A stretch of DNA of 63,059 nucleotides from NCBI GenBank assembly GCA_002338125.1, contig DDHN01000008.1:113094-176152 (forward strand). The letters run 5' to 3'. This document shows positions 7,476 to 45,498 of this stretch, piece after piece. The notes under the pieces were generated by a model. That model searched no databases, was not told where the DNA came from, and was given only the letters and a program-made list of their open reading frames with translations. The DNA is from Patescibacteria group bacterium UBA1875. GTDB taxonomy: Bacteria; Patescibacteriota; CPR2; UBA1875. The position numbers and the translations under genes were made by a program. Position 1 is the stretch's first letter; each line of letters opens with the position of its first letter.

Positions 7476-10400
7476 ATGTCGCAATCGATAAAATCGAATA
7501 AACTGGTGAAGGGTGGATTTGTTCATCTTCATGTTCACACTCACTATTCCTTACTTGATGGAATGTGCAAAATCCCGCAACTTTTAGACCGAGCCAAAGA
7601 TTATGGGATGCCGGCAGTAGCTATAACAGATCACGGTGTTATGTATGGTGTAGTCGAATTCTTAAAAGAGGCTAGGGCAAGGGGAATAAAACCAATTATC
7701 GGGTGTGAAGTCTATATCGCTCCAAGAGGAATGAGAGACAAAACCCCAAAAATTGATACAAACCCCTCGCACTTAGTCCTTTTGGCTAAAAACGAAATTG
7801 GCTATAAAAATTTGATGGAAATGGTCACTGAGGCACATCTTGAAGGTTATTACTATAAACCGCGAATTGATAAGGAACTACTTTCAAAAAAATTCGAAGG
7901 CTTGATAGCTTTGTCTTCTTGTTTACATAGTGAAATAGCAACTAATCTTTTAGAAAAAAATGAGAAGAAGGCACAGAAGGTACTCGATTTCTATAAAAAT
8001 CTTTTTGGTGATGACTTTTATATCGAACTTCAATTTAACCCCGGACTACCGGAACAGGATATTGCTAACAAAAAATTACTAAAATTAGCTAAGAAGAATA
8101 ATGTTAAAGTTGTAGCTAGTAAAGATGTCCACTATATCGATAAAGATGATCGAGAAGCCCATGATGCTTTAATATGTGTTCAGACAGGGAAAATGGTAAG
8201 CGACGAAGACCGGATGCGCTTTAATTCAGATCAATCATTCTTGTCGCCTCAGGAGATGGCAGATGCATTTAAGGATGTACCGGAAGCGATAACCAATACG
8301 CTAGAGGTTGCCGAAAAATGTGAATTTGGAGATAACTACAAACTGCCTTTTGCAGATGAGAAGAAGATTTTAATTCCTAAATTCGATATCCCAAAAGGGA
8401 AAACCAAAAGACAGTATTTAGAAGCCCTGGTCTCAAAAGGGCTCACCCAAAGATATAAAAAAATCACCAAAGCAATAAAAGATCGAGCTGCTTATGAATT
8501 GGAAGTAATTGAAAGAATGAAATTCGAGGATTATTTTTTGATTGTTGCGGATTTTGTAAACTGGGCTAAGGGTCAAGGTATATTAGTTGGCCCTGGCAGA
8601 GGTTCGGCTGCCGGTTCTGTTGTTTCTTATGCCTTGGGTATTGTTGATTTGGACCCCTTAAAATATGATCTTCTTTTTGAAAGATTTCTGAATCCAGATC
8701 GTATTTCGATGCCTGATATTGATATGGATTTTGCTGATGATCGAAGAAGTGAAGTTATTGAATATACGGTAGAAAAATACGGTAAAGATAAAGTAGCTCA
8801 GATCATAACTTTCGGGACTATGGCAGCTAGAAATGCTGTTAGGGATACTGGTCGTGTTCTTGGTATGAGTTATGCTGAGGTTGACGAAGTTGCTAAGGCA
8901 ATTCCTTCGAATATCCCTCTGGCTGTTTCGGTCAAAGAAGTCCCAGAGTTAGCGGCCTTTTACAATCAGGGGGGTAACTACAAAAAATTATTAGATTTAG
9001 CTCAAAGGTTAGAAGGAGTGGCTCGCCATTCCTCTACTCATGCAGCCGGAGTGGTTGTAGCTCAGGAGCCTTTGGTTGAGTTTACTCCGCTTCAAAAAGC
9101 AGTTAAGGGAGATGTCTCTTGGCAAACCCAGTATGAGATGCATGCTATCGAAGATCTTGGACTACTCAAAATGGACTTTTTGGGTCTCTCAAACTTAACA
9201 ATACTGAAAAATGCTCTACGGATTATTAAAAAAGTTTATGGTAAAGAAATAAATCTTTACGAACTACCCGATGATGACAAAAAAACTTACAAACTAATGA
9301 GCCAAGGGGAAACAACAGGAGTTTTTCAGCTTGAATCTTCCGGAATGAAGCGTTATTTAAAAGAACTTAAACCTAGTTGTTTCGAGGATGTTATAGCTAT
9401 GGTGGCAATGTATCGCCCAGGACCACTTAAATCAGGTATGGTTGATGAATTCATAGAGCGAAAGCATGGAAAAAGAAAGGTAACCTATCCTCACCCATTA
9501 ATGGAAAATGCTCTTTCTGATACTTATGGAGTTATTATTTATCAAGAACAGGTGATGCAACTTTCAAAGGATATGGCCGGTTTCACCGGAGGCCAGGCTG
9601 ATACTCTTAGAAAAGCTATGGGCAAAAAAATTAAAGATTTGATGGCCAAACTTAAAGTAGAATTTATCGAAGGTTGTGTAAAAAACAAAATAGATAAAAA
9701 AATAGCTGTAAAAACTTTTGAAGATATGGAAAAATTTGCTGAATATGGCTTCAATAAATCACATGCTGCATGTTATGCTCAAATTGCCTATTGGACCGCT
9801 TATTTAAAAGCTCATTTTCCTTCGGCTTTTATGGCGGCACTTTTAACCTCAGATTATTCGGATATTGACCGAATTGCTATTGAAATTTCTGAAGCTCAAG
9901 CCATGGGGATCGAGGTCCTTGGTCCCGATGTGAATGAATCATTTTCTGAATTTGGAGTTGCAAAAGATAGCGGTCAAATTAGATATGGATTAATTGCTAT
10001 AAAAAATGTTGGTAACGGAATTGTAGAAGCGATTCTTGATGCCCGAAAAGAGGGAGGCAAATTTACTGGAATTGAAGATTTTTGTATGCGAGTTAAGGCG
10101 GAGGAGGTCAACAAGAAGGTGATGGAAGCTCTGATAAAGTCGGGTGCTTTTGACTCTTTAAGTGATAGAAGTAAGCTTTTATATAACCTTGATAAGATAC
10201 TAGCTTTTACTCAAAAGGTTCAAAAAGGAGCAATTGATGGGCAAATGGGTCTTTTTGGAGAAGAGGCCAAGAATCAGGTTGCTTTTCACCTTGAACTCAT
10301 TGAACCAGAAGAAGAGTTAACAACAGAAGAGAAATTAGCTTTCGAAAAAGAACTTCTTGGAATATATTTTTCCGAACATCCGCTTGATGCCCATCAAGAC

Positions 10401-10955
10401 AAGATAAGGGCCTTACGGGTTGATAATATTGCTGATATTAATATTGCCAGCAATGGTAAGGGGGTAGTTTTAGGAGGGGTAGTTGTTCAGATTCAAAAAA
10501 TATTAACTAGAAAAAACGATCCAATGGCATTCATCCGCTTTGAAGATAAAACTGGCTCTACCGAGTTAATTGTATTCCCAAATACGCTTGAAAAATACCA
10601 ACATTTGATTGTAGAGGGAAAGATACTTTATGTTCGGGGGAAAATTAACAATAAAGACAACCAGCTTAAAGTATTAGTAGATTCGATAGAGGATTTAAAA
10701 ATTAAAGAAGCTAATAACAATGAAACTGTGAATACAAATTTTGTTCACGTTGATGACGTTGCTACAATAATAGTTCCGGAGGGAGTGACTGATACTGATT
10801 TAACGGCTTTGAAGGTTCTTTTAGCTACTCATAAAGGGGATACGGACACATATGTTGTTTTGCCTGGGAACGGTAAAATTAAAATGCCTTTTGGAATTGA
10901 TTTTTCGAACGGAATTACCGACGATATTAATGCTTTACTTTCAAGAAGGGGTTAA
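7476..10955 (+). CDS. dnaE: DNA polymerase III alpha subunit
   Basis: 1159 aa. N-terminal PHP domain (FVHLHVHTHYSLLDG), a polymerase core and a C-terminal OB-fold region. GAGGAG SD. Confidence 0.95.
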   Translation: MSQSIKSNKLVKGGFVHLHVHTHYSLLDGMCKIPQLLDRAKDYGMPAVAITDHGVMYGVVEFLKEARARGIKPIIGCEVYIAPRGMRDKTPKIDTNPSHLVLLAKNEIGYKNLMEMVTEAHLEGYYYKPRIDKELLSKKFEGLIALSSCLHSEIATNLLEKNEKKAQKVLDFYKNLFGDDFYIELQFNPGLPEQDIANKKLLKLAKKNNVKVVASKDVHYIDKDDREAHDALICVQTGKMVSDEDRMRFNSDQSFLSPQEMADAFKDVPEAITNTLEVAEKCEFGDNYKLPFADEKKILIPKFDIPKGKTKRQYLEALVSKGLTQRYKKITKAIKDRAAYELEVIERMKFEDYFLIVADFVNWAKGQGILVGPGRGSAAGSVVSYALGIVDLDPLKYDLLFERFLNPDRISMPDIDMDFADDRRSEVIEYTVEKYGKDKVAQIITFGTMAARNAVRDTGRVLGMSYAEVDEVAKAIPSNIPLAVSVKEVPELAAFYNQGGNYKKLLDLAQRLEGVARHSSTHAAGVVVAQEPLVEFTPLQKAVKGDVSWQTQYEMHAIEDLGLLKMDFLGLSNLTILKNALRIIKKVYGKEINLYELPDDDKKTYKLMSQGETTGVFQLESSGMKRYLKELKPSCFEDVIAMVAMYRPGPLKSGMVDEFIERKHGKRKVTYPHPLMENALSDTYGVIIYQEQVMQLSKDMAGFTGGQADTLRKAMGKKIKDLMAKLKVEFIEGCVKNKIDKKIAVKTFEDMEKFAEYGFNKSHAACYAQIAYWTAYLKAHFPSAFMAALLTSDYSDIDRIAIEISEAQAMGIEVLGPDVNESFSEFGVAKDSGQIRYGLIAIKNVGNGIVEAILDARKEGGKFTGIEDFCMRVKAEEVNKKVMEALIKSGAFDSLSDRSKLLYNLDKILAFTQKVQKGAIDGQMGLFGEEAKNQVAFHLELIEPEEELTTEEKLAFEKELLGIYFSEHPLDAHQDKIRALRVDNIADINIASNGKGVVLGGVVVQIQKILTRKNDPMAFIRFEDKTGSTELIVFPNTLEKYQHLIVEGKILYVRGKINNKDNQLKVLVDSIEDLKIKEANNNETVNTNFVHVDDVATIIVPEGVTDTDLTALKVLLATHKGDTDTYVVLPGNGKIKMPFGIDFSNGITDDINALLSRRG

Positions 10956-10977
10956 TAACCATAAAAAGAAAAAAGTA

Positions 10978-11006
10978 TTGACTTATATGCAATATTTTGG
11001 TATATT
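10978..11006 (+). promoter_or_regulatory. Sigma70-type promoter of island 1
   Basis: TTGACT (10978-10983), a 17-nt spacer, then TATATT (11001-11006) with an upstream TG (extended -10). Confidence 0.6.
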
Positions 11007-11013
11007 ATAGCGC

Positions 11014-11055
11014 ATCCGCTTCGGTGGATTGAACAATTTTCGACCTGTTAGGTCG
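11014..11055 (+). promoter_or_regulatory. Island 1 5' leader with two short hairpins
   Basis: ATCCGC-UUCG-GTGGAT (11014-11029) and CGACC-TGTTA-GGTCG (11041-11055). An AAGGAG SD lies at 11083-11088. Confidence 0.5.
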
Positions 11056-11093
11056 TTTGAACATTGAAAACATACCTAGTCTAAGGAGATATC

Positions 11094-11306
11094 ATGCGTT
11101 TTGCACTTCTTCCGCTTCTAGCAGCATCGATCATGCTCTTGGTGGGTATTGTCTTGTGTACAGATTGGAGGCCAGTTTCAAGGCTATTCAAGTCTCTGTA
11201 TCAAGACATTACTAATCCTAACCCGCTTTTCCCGGGACCATTCACTCGGTTCACGGGTATCATGCTTGGAACAGACATCGGCGAAGAGTCCAAGAAAGGA
11301 AGGTGA
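11094..11306 (+). CDS. Island 1 ORF-a: 70-aa protein with an N-terminal signal/anchor helix
   Basis: An AAGGAG SD lies 5 nt upstream of the ATG. The N-terminus (MRFALLPLLAASIMLLVGIVLC) is hydrophobic. No family recognised. Confidence 0.55.
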   Translation: MRFALLPLLAASIMLLVGIVLCTDWRPVSRLFKSLYQDITNPNPLFPGPFTRFTGIMLGTDIGEESKKGR

Positions 11307-11382
11307 AGGCGATGTATTTGGGTCCGTAACATTTCCTCATCGTTTGCGACAGAAAGGAAAACAACGATGAGGGAGGGGCAAC

Positions 11383-11652
11383 ATGAAGGGTTCAAGGTTC
11401 GACCATCGGGGTTACGAGATTTATCGCAACCCAGTTCCGGTAGAAATACTGGAAGAGATCGAAGGTAAGTTGACTCCTAGGGAGACAACTGGCTACGAGT
11501 TCGTTGTCTATCATGACGGTCTGCCGCTAGACATCAATGTCACGGCTCTTAATCGTCATCTTGGCCTCAAAGAGGTCAAGGAGTGGATCGATAGGCAGTT
11601 TGCAACACAAGCCGCAGCCGAGACCGACATTGTGTCGGCTCAGTCGAACTAG
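11383..11652 (+). CDS. Island 1 ORF-b: 89-aa soluble hypothetical protein
   Basis: A GAGGGAGGGG SD (11369-11378) precedes the ATG. No family recognised. Confidence 0.55.
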   Translation: MKGSRFDHRGYEIYRNPVPVEILEEIEGKLTPRETTGYEFVVYHDGLPLDINVTALNRHLGLKEVKEWIDRQFATQAAAETDIVSAQSN

Positions 11653-11661
11653 GGGAGGCAG

Positions 11662-12123
11662 ATGATGAAAACGGAAGAGAAGGTCGCATTTCTTGCCGAG
11701 ATGATCGAGGACTTCAATGCCCACGGTTGTCCAGGAAAGGCAGATACCGACAAGGGTCTCCACTATGCAAGGGAGATCATCGACTCGCTCCATCATTGCG
11801 AAAAGCCTGAGGAAGGGGCCGTATATCTCATTACGGCTCTTAGCTTCAAGGCCATTGTCGCGATGGAGGCAGGCTGCCATGCTGATGCGGCAGACTGTCC
11901 TTGTTTCGAAAGCTGCTACGTGTGGACACACGCAGCAGCTGCCAACCCATCCCGATCAATAGTCTCTCTGGTTAGCAAAGGGAGACGCTGCGAGATGGGT
12001 AATGTCGAGTGTTCACTGAACCTCGACAACCCTGGCCGAAGGCATCGTGAGAGCGAATCGCTTCTGGATGTTGATAAGGCCATGGCCGAGAGCTATGTTC
12101 CCGAATCCGGGGCGGCGTGGTAG
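11662..12123 (+). CDS. Island 1 ORF-c: 153-aa Cys/His-rich hypothetical protein
   Basis: A GGGGAGG SD (11652-11658) overlaps the ORF-b stop. It has 8 Cys, including HGC, HHC, GCH and DCPCFESC. Confidence 0.6.
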   Translation: MMKTEEKVAFLAEMIEDFNAHGCPGKADTDKGLHYAREIIDSLHHCEKPEEGAVYLITALSFKAIVAMEAGCHADAADCPCFESCYVWTHAAAANPSRSIVSLVSKGRRCEMGNVECSLNLDNPGRRHRESESLLDVDKAMAESYVPESGAAW

Positions 12124-12125
12124 CG

Positions 12126-12359
12126 ATGAACATAGAAATCATCGCCATGTGTATGGGTCGTGAGGGAACGGTTCTGCACGAGCCGTACACAGCAGCGAAT
12201 GTTGCTGCTGGTATCGTCCGTTCCGGTGGACGTGTCCTCGGAGTCGTCAAGTCAAACGTCGAAGGGGAGCCGATATTCCGGAAAACGGTAGAAATCGGTT
12301 CACCAGAAGAGATCAAGGAGTTCATTCTCGCTTTCTCAGGAGCTGAGGAGGGGGCATGA
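12126..12359 (+). CDS. Island 1 ORF-d: 77-aa hypothetical protein
   Basis: The ATG lies 2 nt after the ORF-c stop (an alternative GTG is at 12117). The stop overlaps the ORF-e start (ATGA). Confidence 0.5.
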   Translation: MNIEIIAMCMGREGTVLHEPYTAANVAAGIVRSGGRVLGVVKSNVEGEPIFRKTVEIGSPEEIKEFILAFSGAEEGA

Positions 12360-12565
12360 AGTGGTTCTGGGGTATCGTCTCCTTGGCAGTAATAACCTTA
12401 ATCGGTTTCGCTGCTGTTTGGGACCCAACCATTAGAGAGGCCGTAAGCGTTATTGCCTACTTGGCAATGGTTGCTGGCTTCTGGTGGATGGGGGTGAAAT
12501 TTGTTGGTCTTTGCGACGAAGTGAAGGCTAACAGTTTCGCAGCTTTCCATCGTGACAAGGACTAG
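12356..12565 (+). CDS. Island 1 ORF-e: 69-aa two-TM membrane protein
   Basis: A GAGGAGGGGG SD lies immediately upstream. There are two hydrophobic helices (FWGIVSLAVITLIGFAAVW and AVSVIAYLAMVAGFWWMGVKFVGL). Confidence 0.6.
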   Translation: MKWFWGIVSLAVITLIGFAAVWDPTIREAVSVIAYLAMVAGFWWMGVKFVGLCDEVKANSFAAFHRDKD

Positions 12566-12820
12566 GTGTTATCAGGCTCTGTTTCATACAGAGACAGCAC
12601 CTACTAGCAGATTGACTTCCGGGTAATACCTGGAGGCCGGATGCAGAGGGGGTTTTAGAGTTGTGAGCCCCTGCATCCGGCCGGTACTGGTCGTGCCAAC
12701 CCGTTCTCACAACGGGTACGACACTAAGGTACCGGTCGGTCTCCGAGTTAAAAACTCGGTCTGCGTCTAGGGATGACAGTTTTGCTTTGCGCGGCAAGGC
12801 TGTTATCCCTGATCATTCTA
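12566..12820 (+). ncRNA. Hairpin-dense non-coding 3' region of island 1 (candidate structured RNA)
   Basis: Six consecutive stable helices: 12577-12593, 12616-12636, 12636-12681, 12681-12735 (three stacked segments), 12743-12759 and 12769-12810. There is no plausible ORF with an SD. Confidence 0.45.
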
Positions 12821-12856
12821 CGGGCCCCAGTCTTCGGACGGGGCCCGTTCACTTTT
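12821..12856 (+). terminator. Island 1 rho-independent terminator
   Basis: CGGGCCCC-A-GTC-UUCG-GAC-GGGGCCCG (11-bp stem, UUCG loop) followed by TTCACTTTT. Confidence 0.75.
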
Positions 12857-12862
12857 AAAATA

Positions 12863-12891
12863 TTGACGAAAGTTTGTTTTTTTGATAATAT
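12863..12891 (+). promoter_or_regulatory. rplS promoter
   Basis: TTGACG, a 17-nt spacer, then TAATAT. The ATG is only about 12 nt downstream of the -10 and has no SD. Confidence 0.5.
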
Positions 12892-12903
12892 CTTCTGGCA
12901 ACT

Positions 12904-13626
12904 ATGAATACGCAATTATTAGAAAAAATAGAAAAAAGCCAGCTCAAGAAAGTTCCGGAAGTTCGTCCCGGTGATCTTGTTCGTGTTCATCAAAAGATTA
13001 AAGAAGGCAAAAAAGAAAGAATTCAGATATTTGAAGGAGTCGTTTTAAGGGTTAGGGGCGGTGGTCTTAGAAAATCTTTTATAGTAAGAAAGATATCCTT
13101 TGGTATTGGGGTTGAAAAGAGTTTCCTAATGCATGCTCCTAATATTATTAAAGTTGAAATCAAGAAAAGAGCGAAGGTCAGAAGGGCCTATTTGACTTAC
13201 CTTAGAAGACTGACGGGGAAAAAGGCTCGTCTTAAAGATGAACAATTTGATTCTTTGGTAGTAAATGTAGAGCCAGAGCCAATCGAAACTGATAAAGAAT
13301 CCGAAAAGGGAGAAAAAACCTCTGATAGTGAGATTGCTGAAATCGATCCAGCAAAAACAGCTAATGTGGAAGTAGTTGAAGTCCCTTTATCGGAAGTAGA
13401 AAAAGAAGAGATAAAACAAGCAGAAGCTGAAGATGAGACAAAAGAAGGTCTAGATGAAGATGATCATCAAAAAATCGAGATTGAAGAAGTAGAAAAAGGT
13501 ATCGAAGAGGCCGAAAAAGATCTAGAAAAAGGCAAGACTAAAAAAACCGATCAAGCCGAAAAAGAAAAAGAAGACATTTCCCAAGAAGAAATTAAAGAAG
13601 AAATAAAAGAAGAAAAAGAGGCTTAA
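12904..13626 (+). CDS. rplS: Ribosomal protein L19 with a long acidic C-terminal extension
   Basis: L19 core (RPGDLVRVHQKIKEGKKERIQIFEGVVL...), followed by about 125 Glu/Lys-rich residues. Confidence 0.9.
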   Translation: MNTQLLEKIEKSQLKKVPEVRPGDLVRVHQKIKEGKKERIQIFEGVVLRVRGGGLRKSFIVRKISFGIGVEKSFLMHAPNIIKVEIKKRAKVRRAYLTYLRRLTGKKARLKDEQFDSLVVNVEPEPIETDKESEKGEKTSDSEIAEIDPAKTANVEVVEVPLSEVEKEEIKQAEAEDETKEGLDEDDHQKIEIEEVEKGIEEAEKDLEKGKTKKTDQAEKEKEDISQEEIKEEIKEEKEA

Positions 13627-28227: not shown

Positions 28228-28256
28228 TTGACAAAAATTAAATTTATGATATTATA
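28228..28256 (+). promoter_or_regulatory. Sigma70-type promoter of island 2
   Basis: TTGACA (28228-28233), then TGaTATTAT (-10 at 28250-28255), starting 6 nt after the recG stop. Confidence 0.6.
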
Positions 28257-28265
28257 GCGATATTA

Positions 28266-28302
28266 TCCGGTGCTAATACCGGAAGTCTCGATTGTGGTCG
28301 AG
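28266..28302 (+). promoter_or_regulatory. Island 2 5' leader with two short hairpins
   Basis: TCCGGT-GCTAAT-ACCGGA (28266-28283) and CTCGA-TTGTGG-TCGAG (28287-28302). An AAGGAAG SD lies at 28311-28317. Confidence 0.5.
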
Positions 28303-28325
28303 TTGACATTAAGGAAGTGATTTGA

Positions 28326-29258
28326 GTGTCTAGTGAGGGCAACGTCTTTGTTGTACGTCTCGACTTCCAGCTCAGCCCTTCGATCGACTTGTTCGATCTT
28401 GAAGACGGAGAAGGAAGGGTCTTCCTGAATCATGCCCCTGAGGTCATTAAAGAGAAGGGAGAATTTGTCCTCGTGCAATCAGAGGGACAATTTGGTTTCT
28501 CCCTTATCCCAGCTGCACCGATGAAAGCTGGGTACAAGAGGGTTGATTCCATCAAGAAGCTTGTGGAGTTGGTGCTTGAGTTTGGGCTGTGTAAGCCCTT
28601 CGTCCCGCGTGGCTACCATGGAATTGTCGAAAAGGGTTTGAGCGATCAGCTCCATAAGGCCTACAACGAGTGCCGATTCGGTTCCTACGTCAAGCTTCCT
28701 GATTCAAGTGTGGTGTTGGTGGTCAGCGATGAAGCTCTTGACCCAGGAACGTTTGTTGAGGCTCGGCGAGCCTGGAACAACGTTCTCGTTGTTGGGCGAG
28801 CTGAGTTCGAGAGCCGGCAACCATTCCGACACGAGAACTGGGCTAGCTTTGTAAGCGCTCTGATGGCTAGCTACCCTCAGCAAGTCAAAGGGCACTTGAC
28901 TCCTCGTAAGCCGCCAAGGAGGATTCAGGGAACTTGGGCCGGTCCCGACCTCGACTACATTAACCGTCGGGGGCAAGCCTCAACTCGTTTGCTTGTTGAC
29001 GGACAAGAAGAAGGGTCTGTCGTTACCGTGTATTTCACGCGTTGCGACAAAAACCCTTCCGTTCCGATCAGAACTGGTGAGGCTGTTGAGGTTTGGTATG
29101 CCGGTAAAGGTAACATTGCGGTTATCCCTTACGCTGGCCGAACCACTCAAGTCCTGCGACCAAGAGAGCTAGTCAGAGAGCTGGGAGTGCAAAGAGACAG
29201 TCTCGATGAGAGAAAACTCTCATCATACGACAACGTTCGCGTGGTCTACACTTCCTGA
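28326..29258 (+). CDS. Island 2 ORF: 310-aa soluble hypothetical protein
   Basis: The GTG start lies 8 nt downstream of AAGGAAG. There is no TM helix or signal peptide. The protein is beta-rich and Arg-rich, and no family is recognised. Confidence 0.65.
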   Translation: MSSEGNVFVVRLDFQLSPSIDLFDLEDGEGRVFLNHAPEVIKEKGEFVLVQSEGQFGFSLIPAAPMKAGYKRVDSIKKLVELVLEFGLCKPFVPRGYHGIVEKGLSDQLHKAYNECRFGSYVKLPDSSVVLVVSDEALDPGTFVEARRAWNNVLVVGRAEFESRQPFRHENWASFVSALMASYPQQVKGHLTPRKPPRRIQGTWAGPDLDYINRRGQASTRLLVDGQEEGSVVTVYFTRCDKNPSVPIRTGEAVEVWYAGKGNIAVIPYAGRTTQVLRPRELVRELGVQRDSLDERKLSSYDNVRVVYTS

Positions 29259-29271
29259 AGTAGTCCCTTGT

Positions 29272-29300
29272 AACGGGCGCCTATCGAGGCGCCCGTTTTC
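29272..29300 (+). terminator. Island 2 rho-independent terminator
   Basis: AACGGGCGCC-TATCGA-GGCGCCCGTT followed by TTC and a T-rich tract. Confidence 0.75.
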
Positions 29301-29913: not shown

Positions 29914-29998
29914 TGGTGCCGGAGAGAGGACTCGAACCTCCACGGGAATACCCACTAGTTCCTAAGACTAGCGCGTCTACCAGTTCCGCCACTCCGGC
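29914..29998 (-). tRNA. tRNA-Leu (anticodon UAG), type II with a long variable arm, CCA encoded
   Basis: The reverse complement folds as acceptor GCCGGAG/CTCCGGC, anticodon stem CTAGT/ACTAG with loop CTTAGGA, T-arm GGAGG-TTCGAGT-CCTCT and 3' ACCA. Upstream on the minus strand lies TTGAAA-N17-TAAAAT (30010-30038). Confidence 0.9.
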
Positions 29999-40780: not shown

Positions 40781-42871
40781 ATGGCTAGAGATTATAGTTT
40801 GGAAAAAACAAGGAATATTGGCATAATTGCGCATATAGATGCTGGTAAAACAACCGTGACCGAAGGAATTTTGTATCTAACTGGTAGGACTCATAAAATT
40901 GGAGAAGTCCATGAAGGTGAGGCTACAATGGACTGGATGGAACAAGAGCGGGAGCGGGGAATCACCATTACTTCGGCTGCGACAACTTGTTTTTGGCAAG
41001 ACAATCGAATAAATATTATCGACACCCCTGGGCACGTAGATTTTACTGTTGAGGTTGAACGGTCTCTTAGAGTTCTTGACGGAGCTGTTACTATTTTTGA
41101 TGGAAAAATGGGAGTTGAGCCTCAGTCAGAAACTGTTTGGCGTCAGGCCGATAAGTATCATGTCCCTAGAATGTGTTTTATTAACAAAATCAATCAAACT
41201 GGTGGCGATTTCTATAAATCTCTAGACTCAATAAAAGAGCGATTGTCAAAAAACGCCTACCCAATTCAAGTACCAATTGGTGTGGAGCAAAGCATTAACG
41301 GTGTTGTCGATTTGGTGGAATTGAAATCATATACATATAATGAATATCATGACAAAAAACTAGTTGTAGGCGATGTCCCTGAGGATATGAAGGAAAAATG
41401 CGAAAAACTTCGAGAAGAACTTTTAGAGAAAGCGGTAGAAGCAGATGAATCTTTGATGGAAAAATATCTTGGAGGTGAAGATTTAACTATTGAAGAATTC
41501 AAGACTGCTATAAGGAAGAGTGTTCTTGCTGGTGACTTTTTCCCGGTTCTTGGTGGAGATGGACGAGGGGTGATTGTCGAAACTCTCCTTGATGCTATTG
41601 TCGATTACCTACCAACTCCACTTGATGTCCCTCCTGTGACTGGTCTTGACCCTAAAACTGGCGAAGAGATAGTAAGAAAGGCTAGTGACGAAGAACCTTT
41701 CGCTGCATTAGCATTTAAGATAGCTACAGACCCGTTCGTTGGAAAGTTAGCATTTTTTAGGGTCTACTCTGGTGTAATTAAAGCCGGCTCTTATGTATAT
41801 AACTCTACTACGGGTGATAAAGAACGTTTAGGCCGAATAGTTAGGCTTCACGCTAATCATCGTGAAGATGTAGACGAAGTTTATGCCGGAGAAATTGCTG
41901 CTGCTGTTGGCTTGAAGGGAACAACAACAGGTGATACTTTGTGTGACCCATCTAATCCAATTGTTTTAGAGGCAATTACTTTTCCTGACCCAGTTATAAC
42001 TATTGCCATTGAGCCAAAGACAAAAGCAGACCAGGAAAAGATGGGTATTGCTTTGGCTAAACTAGCCGAAGAAGATCCGACCTTTGTAGTAAAATCAGAT
42101 GAAGAAACAGGGCAGACCGTAATTTCTGGTATGGGTGAGCTTCATCTAGAAATTATCGTCGATAGAATGAAGCGAGAATTTAAGGTAGAAGCCAATATCG
42201 GTAAACCGCAAGTTGCCTACAAAGAAACGATTAAAGAAAAAGCCCAGGCTGAAGGTAAATATATTAAACAGTCCGGAGGAAGAGGTCAGTATGGACATGT
42301 TTGGCTTGAGCTTGAGCCACTAGAAGCTGGTTCTGGTTTTGAGTTTGTTGATAAGATTGTTGGTGGTGCTGTTCCGAAAGAATTCATAGGGCCAACCCAA
42401 CAAGGTATTGTTGAGGCAATGGCCAATGGTGTAATTGCCGGATATCCGGTAGTTGATGTTCGAGCAACTTTGTATGATGGCTCTTTTCACGATGTTGACT
42501 CATCAGAAATGGCCTTTAAGATTGCCGGGAGCATGGCATTTCAGTCAGGTTTCAAAAAAGCAAAACCGATTATTCTTGAACCTGTTATGAAGGTCGAAGT
42601 ACTTACGCCCGAAGAGTTTATGGGTGATGTTATGGGAGATTTGAATTCAAAGAGGGGTAAGATTCAAAATATGGAAGATAGAGCCCAAACAAAAGTAATT
42701 GATGCGATGGTACCTTTATCGGAAATGTTTGGTTATGCTACTCAGCTACGCTCTATAACTCAGGGTCGAGCCTCATATGTTATGGAATTTGATCATTATG
42801 AAGAGGTTCCTGGTAATATAGCGGAAGAGATAAAAGCGGCTCGGGGAACAAAAGAAGCAACCGAAGAATAG
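40781..42871 (+). CDS. fusA: Elongation factor G
   Basis: G motifs AHIDAGKTT and DTPGH. 696 aa. Confidence 0.95.
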
Positions 42872-42875
42872 AATA

Positions 42876-42908
42876 AATAATGAGGCCAAGTCAGGCCTCA
42901 TTATTTTA
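42876..42908 (+). terminator. Terminator after fusA
   Basis: 12-bp stem AATAATGAGGCC/GGCCTCATTATT with a 6-nt loop, followed by TTT. Confidence 0.7.
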
Positions 42909-42933
42909 CGAAGCTGTTAATTTAGGCTATAAT
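42905..42933 (+). promoter_or_regulatory. Sigma70-type promoter of island 3
   Basis: TTTACG, a 17-nt spacer, then TATAAT (42928-42933). Confidence 0.5.
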
Positions 42934-42976
42934 ATTGATAACGTTAATACGAGAAACTTGAAGGCAGGTGAGGAAG

Positions 42977-43129
42977 ATGCTTTCGAGAACAAGAGAAAGA
43001 GTAGCAAACATTATCGCATGCTCTTTGCTCTCGCTCTTTTTCCTCATCCTTAAACAATTAGTTCTGTCAGCTGTTACCGGCTTGATTGTCTTTTGTGATA
43101 GCTTTTCAAAGCCAACGTGGAAGGAGTGA
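42977..43129 (+). CDS. Island 3 ORF-a: 50-aa hydrophobic peptide (absent from the ORF track)
   Basis: GGTGAGGAAG SD. MLSRTRERVANIIACSLLSLFFLILKQLVLSAVTGLIVFCDSFSKPTWKE, with 1-2 TM segments. Confidence 0.5.
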   Translation: MLSRTRERVANIIACSLLSLFFLILKQLVLSAVTGLIVFCDSFSKPTWKE

Positions 43130-43131
43130 TT

Positions 43132-43278
43132 ATGGGTCTCCAAATGCTTGGTATTATTCTAATGATTGTCTTTATGGCTATCGTGGGTGGTTTGTTGACA
43201 AGAGTCTACGTCAAACGCCTTGATGAACAGGCCGCAATGTACCTCGATCATGAGGACCAGATCATCTCTGAGCTTTGA
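43132..43278 (+). CDS. Island 3 ORF-b: 48-aa single-TM peptide (absent from the ORF track)
   Basis: The AAGGAG SD overlaps the ORF-a stop and the ATG lies 2 nt after that stop. MGLQMLGIILMIVFMAIVGGLL is followed by an acidic tail. Confidence 0.5.
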   Translation: MGLQMLGIILMIVFMAIVGGLLTRVYVKRLDEQAAMYLDHEDQIISEL

Positions 43279-43290
43279 GGGGGGAGTGTG

Positions 43291-43611
43291 ATGACCAGAA
43301 AGAAAGCTGACAGGCTGTGCGCTAAAGGCTTGGCAGCTGACCCAGACTATTGCTTGTATGATGAAGGAAGTGTCTGCCCGTGTGAACGGTACTACCAGAA
43401 ACTGACAAGGCCTTCGCTTGGTCGATTACTTCTTTCAACTATTACGTTGCAAAAGGATGAAACCGCGTCGTGTGTTGGTTGTTTGACGGAATCTCAGACA
43501 GCGTGTCCGTCATGTGTCAACAGTTCGGCTCACGAACGGTTGCTGGCAGCCTGTCCCCCGATCCGAGGAGGTTCTGCCGATGAAGGAATTCATTGCTTCG
43601 GGTGGCGGTAG
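43291..43611 (+). CDS. Island 3 ORF-c: 106-aa Cys-rich protein
   Basis: A GAGGGGGGAG SD precedes ATG 43291 (a GTG lies at 43288). It has 10 Cys, including VCPC, CVGC and CPSC. Confidence 0.6.
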   Translation: MTRKKADRLCAKGLAADPDYCLYDEGSVCPCERYYQKLTRPSLGRLLLSTITLQKDETASCVGCLTESQTACPSCVNSSAHERLLAACPPIRGGSADEGIHCFGWR

Positions 43612-43693
43612 CTACCTTCTTGTTGGTATCACGGTCCTTGTTTGTCTGACTGGTGGGGCGATTCATTACAATCGAATTCGTCCTCGGCGCTAA
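43580..43693 (+). CDS. Island 3 ORF-d: 37-aa single-TM peptide (absent from the ORF track)
   Basis: GAGGAGG SD at 43565-43571. It overlaps the ORF-c end by 32 nt. MKEFIASGGGSYLLVGITVLVCLTGGAIHYNRIRPRR. Confidence 0.45.
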   Translation: MKEFIASGGGSYLLVGITVLVCLTGGAIHYNRIRPRR

Positions 43694-43734
43694 TTGTCAA
43701 AGGAGGAGAGAGTGGCCTGTGTAGCACCTTAGTT

Positions 43735-43776
43735 GGCCCCGGTTACAATATTGTAATCCGGGGCCTTCTTTATATT
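43735..43776 (+). terminator. Island 3 rho-independent terminator
   Basis: GGCCCCGG-TTACAA..TTGTAA-(T)-CCGGGGCC extended hairpin followed by TTCTTTATATT. Confidence 0.75.
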
Positions 43777-45127: not shown

Positions 45128-45451
45128 ATGTCAGAAGAAAAAGATACAAAACAACGAATCAGAATCAAGCTACGTGCTTACGACCACAAAGTTCTCGATG
45201 AATCTGTTAAGCAGATTATTGATACTGCTAATCGTTCAGGTGCAAAGGTGGCTGGTCCGATCCCGTTACCAACGGATCGTTCTCCAATAACCGTTTTAAA
45301 ATCTACTAATCAACATAAAAATGCTCGTGAGCAATTTGAGATTAGGGTTCATAAACGATTAATAGATATCTTGGAGCCAAATGCTAAGACAGTTGACTCG
45401 CTAATGAACATTTCTCTTCCAGCCGGTGTTGATATCGAGATAAAGATGTAA
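45128..45451 (+). CDS. rpsJ: Ribosomal protein S10
   Basis: Conserved S10 sequence ([14 protein letters not shown]...). Confidence 0.95.
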
Positions 45452-45458
45452 GATGATC

Positions 45459-45498
45459 GATATATGAAAAAGCCCCTTCGGGGGCTTTTTCATATATC
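45459..45498 (+). terminator. Perfect 18-bp palindromic terminator with a UUCG loop after rpsJ
   Basis: GATATATGAAAAAGCCCC-TTCG-GGGGCTTTTTCATATATC. The A-run and T-run arms make it potentially bidirectional. Confidence 0.8.

Follow-up and report, generated by a model that had tools for sequence, protein, structure and literature searches.

The 63,059-nt stretch of DNA analysed here, referred to as the window, carries dnaE (7476–10955), rplS (12904–13626), rnhB, nusA and clpB in this order in a genome of 37% GC, and the nearest relatives of its ribosomal protein L19 come from Saccharibacteria or Patescibacteria genomes. The interval between dnaE and rplS is a 1.9-kb island (island 1) of 47–54% GC, which contains five small ORFs and ends in a non-coding tail (Table 1). 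The same organism has been assembled from several oil and water metagenomes, and the island is 100% identical across its six contigs, therefore there is no population variation to use. L19 itself has 240 aa, about 120 of which form an acidic, Lys-rich extension at the C-terminus, and the L19 proteins of the related lineages are also extended (214–247 aa).

The promoter of the island begins 23 nt past the dnaE stop codon, and an equivalent promoter is found at the same place in relatives, while the separate promoter of rplS is kept in relatives both with and without the island. A promoter scan revealed no internal promoter-like site within the tail, nor upstream of it in ORF4 or ORF5. Judging from the promoter at 10978–11006, the orientation of the operon and the terminator downstream, the tail is probably transcribed as RNA, together with the five genes.

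Table 1. Positions of the island 1 features and of the helices of its 3' tail (coordinates refer to the window unless another lineage is named)
Feature	Position	Strand	Details
Putative island operon promoter, sigma-70-type	10978–11006	+	TTGACT-17-TATATT, TG-extended, 10/12 consensus matches
5' UTR and ORF1 SD	11010–11093	+	two small hairpins, one UUCG-capped (~11013–11030) and a second at ~11041–11056
ORF1–ORF5	11094–12565	+	small, SD-preceded, partly overlapping; 47–54% GC, over-structured, without family match
Over-structured coding regions	window 11300–12565; L081 5000–5680; L086 4300–5640; L088 1300–2225		
H1 hairpin	12563–12603	+	inner stem 12577–12582/12588–12593; outer 8-bp stem 12563–12570/12596–12603; pair probability 0.94–0.96
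P1 stem	12609–12617/12734–12742	+	9 bp, three G-U pairs
Four-way junction	12609–12742	+	P1 encloses H2 (12618–12634), H3 (12635–12682) and H4 (12683–12733); zero linker bases
H2	12618–12624/12628–12634	+	7 bp
H3	12635–12645/12672–12682 plus 12649–12655/12665–12671	+	
H4	12683–12688/12728–12733, 12690–12694/12718–12722, 12699–12705/12711–12717	+	
H5 small hairpin	12743–12759	+	pairs 12744–12749/12753–12758, 6–7 bp, AAA loop
H6	12768–12811	+	12768–12786/12793–12811, single 19-bp helix with G-U pairs
Island operon intrinsic terminator (candidate)	12820–12856	+	GC-rich hairpin 12820–12828/12840–12848, 9+3 bp, UUCG-containing loop, then UCACUUUU
rplS own promoter	12863–12891	+	right-hand island boundary; outside the structured RNA

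The island ORFs encode proteins of 70 aa (ORF1, with a TM segment), 89 aa (ORF2), 153 aa (ORF3), 77–80 aa (ORF4) and 69 aa (ORF5, with two TM segments), and their codon-position GC is coding-like (GC1 ~0.6, GC2 ~0.4, GC3 ~0.55). Searches of all of them against Pfam, PHROGs and PADLOC returned no significant match. ORF3 (11662–12123) encodes a Cys-rich protein with the invariant residues H73, D75, C79, C85, C110 and C117, and its AlphaFold model is a confident helical bundle (pLDDT 79.6), which has no fold match in PDB or BFVD and none to RNA-binding folds. The soluble island proteins are acidic (pI ~5), which weakly argues against a role in a ribonucleoprotein.

Word-indexed protein searches with ORF3 and ORF2 returned only the queries themselves; an exhaustive HMMER search with ORF3 detected three remote homologs (about 30–36% identity) and a profile search a fourth, so that the family consists of five clusters among 5.8 billion proteins. 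The genes for four of the five proteins, counting that of the window, lie between dnaE and rplS, and the fifth is on a contig of 1185 nt (L089), which starts inside the island and has rplS downstream. These relatives define three further lineages, described as Saccharimonadia-like and represented by L081–L085 with L089, by L086 with L087, and by L088. Their DnaE is 64–72% identical to that of the window (57–72% over all pairs), as compared to 50–67% for L19, 28–34% for ORF3 and 42% for ORF2 where it is present. The gene content of the island is mosaic, and a small TM ORF, ORF3, the non-coding tail and the GC-rich terminator are always present; the island of L088 has lost ORF2, ORF4 and ORF5 yet keeps the tail. 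In L008, L009 and L065, dnaE and rplS are only 113–236 nt apart, therefore the island is a clade-specific insertion. Other Saccharimonadia relatives have 2.6–5 kb of other DNA in the same place, and the spacer may therefore be a recurrent insertion site.

Beyond these genomes, a metagenome collection that evidently lacks the source contigs yielded nothing in a scan with the ORF3 profile, and an RNA-pattern scan of metagenomes gave one chance match in an unrelated GC-rich contig. Viral contigs contained no ORF3 relative, and all seven of their RNA-pattern matches were rejected by the covariance model (CM) of the tail.

Fold, coding potential and conservation of the tail

On the + strand, the tail (12566–12850) has an MFE of -149.5 kcal/mol, far lower than the -98.2 ± 5.5 of 200 dinucleotide shuffles (z -9.27, with no shuffle as good), and its centroid structure is almost the same as the MFE structure. 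The sub-region 12609–12812 reaches z -9.53 against shuffles, and 12601–12800 is the most extreme of 315 200-nt windows across the 63 kb (z -7.1; background mean -0.44, sd 1.35). The base-pair probabilities of the helices are 0.77–0.98 when folded in a 410-nt context, and the local fold is retained when the whole 1841-nt transcript is folded. The minus strand of the tail reaches -129.9 (z -7.6).

The original prediction had listed six helices followed by a terminator, all of which were recovered by folding at, or within a few bases of, the places where they had been put. H2 exists with 7 bp in place of the 8 proposed, H6 is one 19-bp helix instead of a series of 6+4+4, and H1 has, in addition to what had been described, an outer stem in which the ORF5 stop codon UAG sits. 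The closing stem P1, and with it the four-way junction, had been missed. In all four lineages the stop codon lies inside or directly beside a tail helix, and ten bases from the last-ORF stop codon onwards (UAGGUGUUAU) are identical in the window (12563–12572) and in L088 (2222–2231), although the last ORF is ORF5 in the former and ORF3 in the latter.

The U-run of the candidate terminator is 3–5 nt away from the stem, and a simple terminator scan did not list it, plausibly because of a bulged A in the stem. Its outer stem GGGCCCC/GGGGCCC is identical in L081, and the layout of hairpin and U-run is also found in L081 and L088.

No sign of translation was found in the tail. GC is flat over the codon positions in every frame (0.52–0.55), the substitutions that separate the window from L081 are not 3-periodic, and each of the six frames is interrupted by a stop in at least one of these two lineages. 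The tail has no SD-preceded ORF, as had been noted before, and the long antisense ORF that had been pointed out (12528–12797) does exist and is among the frames so interrupted.

At gathering thresholds, a scan of the window with Rfam 15 detected only a tRNA-Leu at 29917–29998. In a permissive scan of the window (E up to 10) the best match in the tail was SgrS with 13.2 bits as against a gathering score of 37, and in the relatives (E up to 1) matches had E values of at least 0.12, far below gathering. ARAGORN found no tRNA or tmRNA in 12500–12900, and a search of the literature on Saccharibacteria ncRNAs returned nothing specific. Diagnostic elements of tRNA, tmRNA, RNase P RNA or SRP RNA had not been noticed in the sequence at first either. 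One might still think of a known RNA class that has diverged strongly here, for instance a riboswitch or leader of rplS, tmRNA, RNase P RNA, SRP RNA or 6S RNA, given that the tail lies upstream of rplS and that an L19 leader RNA exists in other phyla. However, the terminator and the separate, conserved rplS promoter stand between the tail and rplS, and the relatives without the island are also without the tail, which, together with the negative Rfam and ARAGORN results, leaves this explanation with hardly any credibility. A type I toxin-antitoxin arrangement (hok/sok-like) was also considered and rejected: small TM ORFs are present (ORF1 and ORF5), but no minus-strand promoter-like site was found in 10900–13000.

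A CM built from the window alone (R1) matches the tail of the L081 group at the syntenic position with 52 bits (E 2e-14); in 74 Saccharibacteria rplS loci and the rest of the window it has no match beyond the tail itself. L081, folded with its upstream context, independently gives the same four-way junction, where the last ORF's stop codon and the 5' strand of P1 overlap. The tails of the three other lineages have z-scores of -5.4, -5.5 and -7.6, and all four span -5.4 to -9.3. Covariation was examined on MAFFT sequence-only alignments, in which the 3' partner slid by 1–3 columns served as control. Among the 37 pairs of H3–H4, compared between just two independent sequences (the window and L081) with a structure derived from one of them, 20 are unchanged, 10 have substitutions in both partners that preserve pairing in every case, 4 have one-sided wobble changes and 3 are broken. 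Pairing is 95.9% in register, as compared to 35–43% in the slid controls, which have 0–2 double changes, and none of the five H3–H4 helices is without a compensatory change.

Read on the + strand, the one-sided changes leave G-U pairs, an argument for RNA with the sense of the operon. Folding energy favours neither strand consistently: it prefers the + strand in the window and L086 and the minus strand in L088, with no difference in L081. These observations bear on the idea that the hairpins act in single-stranded or cruciform DNA, for instance as a mobile-cassette recombination site of the integron attC type, or are the scar of an insertion. The island is indeed an insertion when compared to the short gaps of L008, L009 and L065, its family-less genes with a structured 3' end superficially resemble integron cassettes, and the minus-strand folds are very stable as well. 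Nevertheless, no integrase or transposase lies in or beside the island, no flanking direct repeats were found, and BLASTN of the island against phage and plasmid collections gave no match. In addition, the one-sided G-U states and the three G-U pairs of P1 would be A-C mismatches on the complement, which are weak in DNA, and the tail spans exactly the distance from the stop codon to the terminator U-run of the sense transcript. A DNA-level element is therefore very improbable. As to the attC class proper, it was rejected, since the called neighbouring genes, with dnaE and rplS as flanks, contain no integrase domain.

Between the window and L081, the core of the tail is the best conserved segment of the island (alignment z 10.3 over 141 nt, versus 7.4 over 462 nt for ORF3); nucleotide alignments of ORF1 and ORF5 are not significant, and the tail is less conserved than rplS or dnaE. 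The unpaired motifs GCCA, the CAACGGG loop region and UGCUYUGCGCGG are kept, and a 12-nt segment comprising the top of the H6 5' arm, the apical loop and the first bases of the 3' arm (UGCUUUGCGCGG) is nearly identical in L081 (UGCUCUGCGCGG). Taken over the alignment, conservation is no higher in unpaired columns (16/23) than in paired ones (47/74; p 0.8).

Across lineages the tail is 170–285 nt long; H1 and H5 are absent in L081 and H2 in L086. The tails of L086 and L088 have the architecture of the others, with a pair of long hairpins that abut, one more hairpin distal to these and a GC-rich terminator, and the P1 junction stem is seen in L086 but not in L088. Neither tail has significant sequence similarity to that of the window. 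The best matches of a two-sequence CM (R2) fall exactly on the hairpins that had been assigned to H3–H4, with E values of just 3.2 and 3.0, therefore homology of these two tails is not claimed.

The tail had been proposed as a candidate novel structured RNA, and the folding energy, the covariation between homologs, the Rfam searches and the tests for translation all came out in favour of that proposal. It is a genuine and conserved structured RNA domain that had not been described before and is known to date from a narrow clade of Patescibacteria.

Structure across the island transcript

The helix density of the tail had been described as far above that of other untranslated regions in the window, which is true but incomplete, because coding windows within the island are nearly as extreme (z -7.0 at 12001–12200 and -4.3 at 11401–11600). 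This abnormal structure of the coding part had not been seen in the original prediction. Altogether, the z-scores of the island's coding windows range from -3 to -7, as against a centre of -0.4 for host windows, and in the three other lineages 200-nt windows of the island have z -3 to -9.4 at 45–65% GC, as compared to flanks near 0 at 30–40% GC. When codons were shuffled synonymously, which keeps the protein sequence and codon usage, the window gave z -4.85 for ORF2, -4.48 for ORF3 and -3.67 for ORF5, and the relatives gave -6.18 (L081 ORF3), -3.06 (L086 ORF2) and -12.85 (L088 ORF3), with host genes between +1.0 and -1.8; ORF4 of the window and ORF3 of L086 were not significant. Furthermore, GC3 is 0.5–0.8 in the island ORFs versus 0.23–0.33 in the flanking genes. 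The window z-scores, the synonymous shuffles and GC3 together indicate GC-richness and over-pairing along the entire island messenger in long-diverged lineages. Either both properties have been kept by selection, or the cassette has been repeatedly replaced from a GC-richer pool. Long-range 5'–3' pairings in the fold of the whole island and inverted repeats of 13–16 nt are, on a rough estimate, not above chance for 1.9 kb.

An island that is over-paired throughout raises the question of whether its tail is a functionless by-product, namely a decayed ORF or spacer that has inherited the general GC-richness and pairing propensity. The coding parts are about as structured as the tail, the length and helix number of the tail vary, as seen from the lineages that lack H1 and H5 or H2, and the gene content around it is mosaic. 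Inherited pairing propensity does not, however, account well for a helix region in which 10 of 10 double substitutions restore pairing, for the same junction topology in two lineages about 30% diverged in DnaE, or for a core that is more conserved than ORF1 and ORF5, and the tail is present in 4/4 lineages. A by-product is thus an unlikely origin.

At the other extreme, the tail could be one domain of a dual-function RNA of about 1.85 kb, where the whole island transcript, beyond its small proteins, would be the selected product; this is a speculative proposal to which only a slight probability is given. It would represent a chromosomal bacterial RNA with virus-like genome-scale ordered structure, kept GC-rich against the AT mutational bias of an ultra-small episymbiont. 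Just as speculatively, such an RNA might have been selected for long survival of nucleases, or for packaging, export or delivery to the host cell, with the junction as a recognition or handling module. Genome-scale ordered RNA structure (GORS) occurs in some RNA viruses, and the island is similar in that its folding excess extends across coding sequence and resides in synonymous sites. Unlike those viruses, the island is a chromosomal, DNA-encoded bacterial operon in which viral genes are not detectable.

Possible roles of the transcript end

The tail extends from stop codon to terminator, has no internal promoter and belongs to a transcript with 5' hairpins and base pairing throughout, which makes a cis-acting 3' module the simplest reading. 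It consists of stable stem-loops 3' of the operon's last stop codon, as 3' stabilisers of mRNA do. The explanation favoured here, with about even confidence, is that it acts in cis as the 3' end domain of an island mRNA that is long-lived and selected for structure. According to this model, the five-gene island, inserted between dnaE and rplS in a small Saccharimonadia-like clade, would be transcribed from the promoter at 10978–11006, and the last 290 nt of the transcript (12563–12856) fold into H1, a flush four-way junction (P1 and H2–H4), H5, H6 and the GC-rich terminator. Selection for GC-richness and base pairing would act on the whole transcript, with the tail as its terminal module. Its compact, nuclease-resistant 3' end might block 3'-to-5' exonucleases, the near-absence of single-stranded A/U-rich sites could deprive endonucleases of entry, and transcription would be stopped ahead of the rplS promoter, which would insulate rplS. 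In combination with the two 5' hairpins, the tail may thereby provide a long-lived messenger for small membrane and Cys-rich proteins.

One terminator hairpin is normally enough as an exonuclease barrier, and the conserved multi-helix junction with its conserved loop sequences hints, against a plain 3' barrier, at something more specific. The tail may instead be a discrete functional ncRNA, either a stable RNA processed from the 3' UTR or a scaffold that binds an island or host protein, in which the junction and loops would form the functional surface. A modular junction fold conserved with covariation, the unpaired motifs that the window shares with L081, a core better conserved than most island ORFs, and the persistence of the tail in L088 despite the loss of three ORFs would all be expected of such an RNA. 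On the other hand, an internal promoter was not found, very little single-stranded sequence is available to serve as a target seed, and conservation is not concentrated in the unpaired columns. As for a protein partner, the soluble island proteins are acidic, the helical bundle of ORF3 is unmatched to RNA-binding folds, and the tails of L086 and L088 have diverged past recognition, which would be unusual given a sequence-specific partner. A discrete ncRNA is thus a possibility to be taken seriously, albeit a doubtful one. Three functions had been suggested at the outset, and among them a 3'-UTR stability domain fits best, none being proven, while the option of an RNA partner of the island proteins has been weakened.

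The cis-acting 3' domain favoured here has several counterparts among known systems. Stabilising stem-loops at mRNA 3' ends include the 'positive retroregulator' terminator of Bacillus thuringiensis cry and the REP hairpins of E. coli operons. Similarly to these, the tail is located past the stop codon at the 3' end of a predicted mRNA, is stable and G+C-rich, is contiguous with a candidate intrinsic terminator and is proposed to act in cis. Unlike them, it has about 290 nt, 6–7 helices, a flush four-way junction and covariation, and its transcript is over-structured throughout; stabilisation, in its case, is a presumed effect. Enterobacterial 3'-UTR-derived sRNAs, such as CpxQ and SdhX, are short and Hfq-dependent and have a single-stranded seed. 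The tail resembles these in being encoded at the end of an mRNA and sharing its candidate terminator, but it is almost fully paired, much longer and without a known processing site.

The GC-IGR approach, as outlined in one published account (PMC8632094), finds GC-rich structured ncRNAs in the intergenic regions of AT-rich genomes. Like the classes linked with that approach (raiA, OLE, ROOL, GOLLD and HEARO), the tail is GC-rich, strongly folded, non-coding and supported by covariation in a genome of 37% GC. It matches none of these classes, however, forms the 3' UTR of an operon instead of a free-standing gene, and is known from four lineages only. What is new is the family, its architecture and the context of a transcript structured throughout; the kind, be it a structured 3' UTR or a GC-rich ncRNA in an AT-rich genome, is already known.

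Structured RNAs have hardly been studied in the candidate phyla radiation (Patescibacteria), and the tail adds a new motif with comparative support. Its context may outweigh the motif itself, as a family-less operon at a conserved site has a GC-rich messenger whose excess folding extends to synonymous sites, and this in four lineages with about 30% divergence in DnaE. Should selection maintain this, it would be one of few bacterial examples of structural selection along a whole transcript, and it could offer a handle on the control of mRNA lifetime in episymbionts with reduced genomes.

Two further GC-rich cassettes are present in the window, which suggests a recurring genomic feature. Island 2 (28230–29300) has a similar putative promoter (TTGACA...TATTAT followed by AGCG), two 5' hairpins, a single family-less ORF of 310 aa (GC3 0.55) and a GC-rich terminator. 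A long structured tail is absent, and over-structuring is confined to the 3' half (synonymous-shuffle z -3.35). The third cassette (42930–43770), flanked by fusA and tuf, is strongly folded in its 5' part (z -6.2 in the 200-nt window 42801–43000) and ends in the terminator GGCCCCGG...CCGGGGCC. Its ORFs encode a small TM peptide (43133–43278), a Cys-rich protein of 107 aa (43288–43611) and another small TM peptide (43581–43694), which is the same layout of TM peptide, Cys-rich protein and TM peptide as in island 1. Finally, an unusually long, AT-flanked hairpin terminator, GATATATGAAAAAGCCCC-TTCG-GGGGCTTTTTCATATATC, follows rpsJ at 45440–45490, where the 200-nt window has z -5.9.
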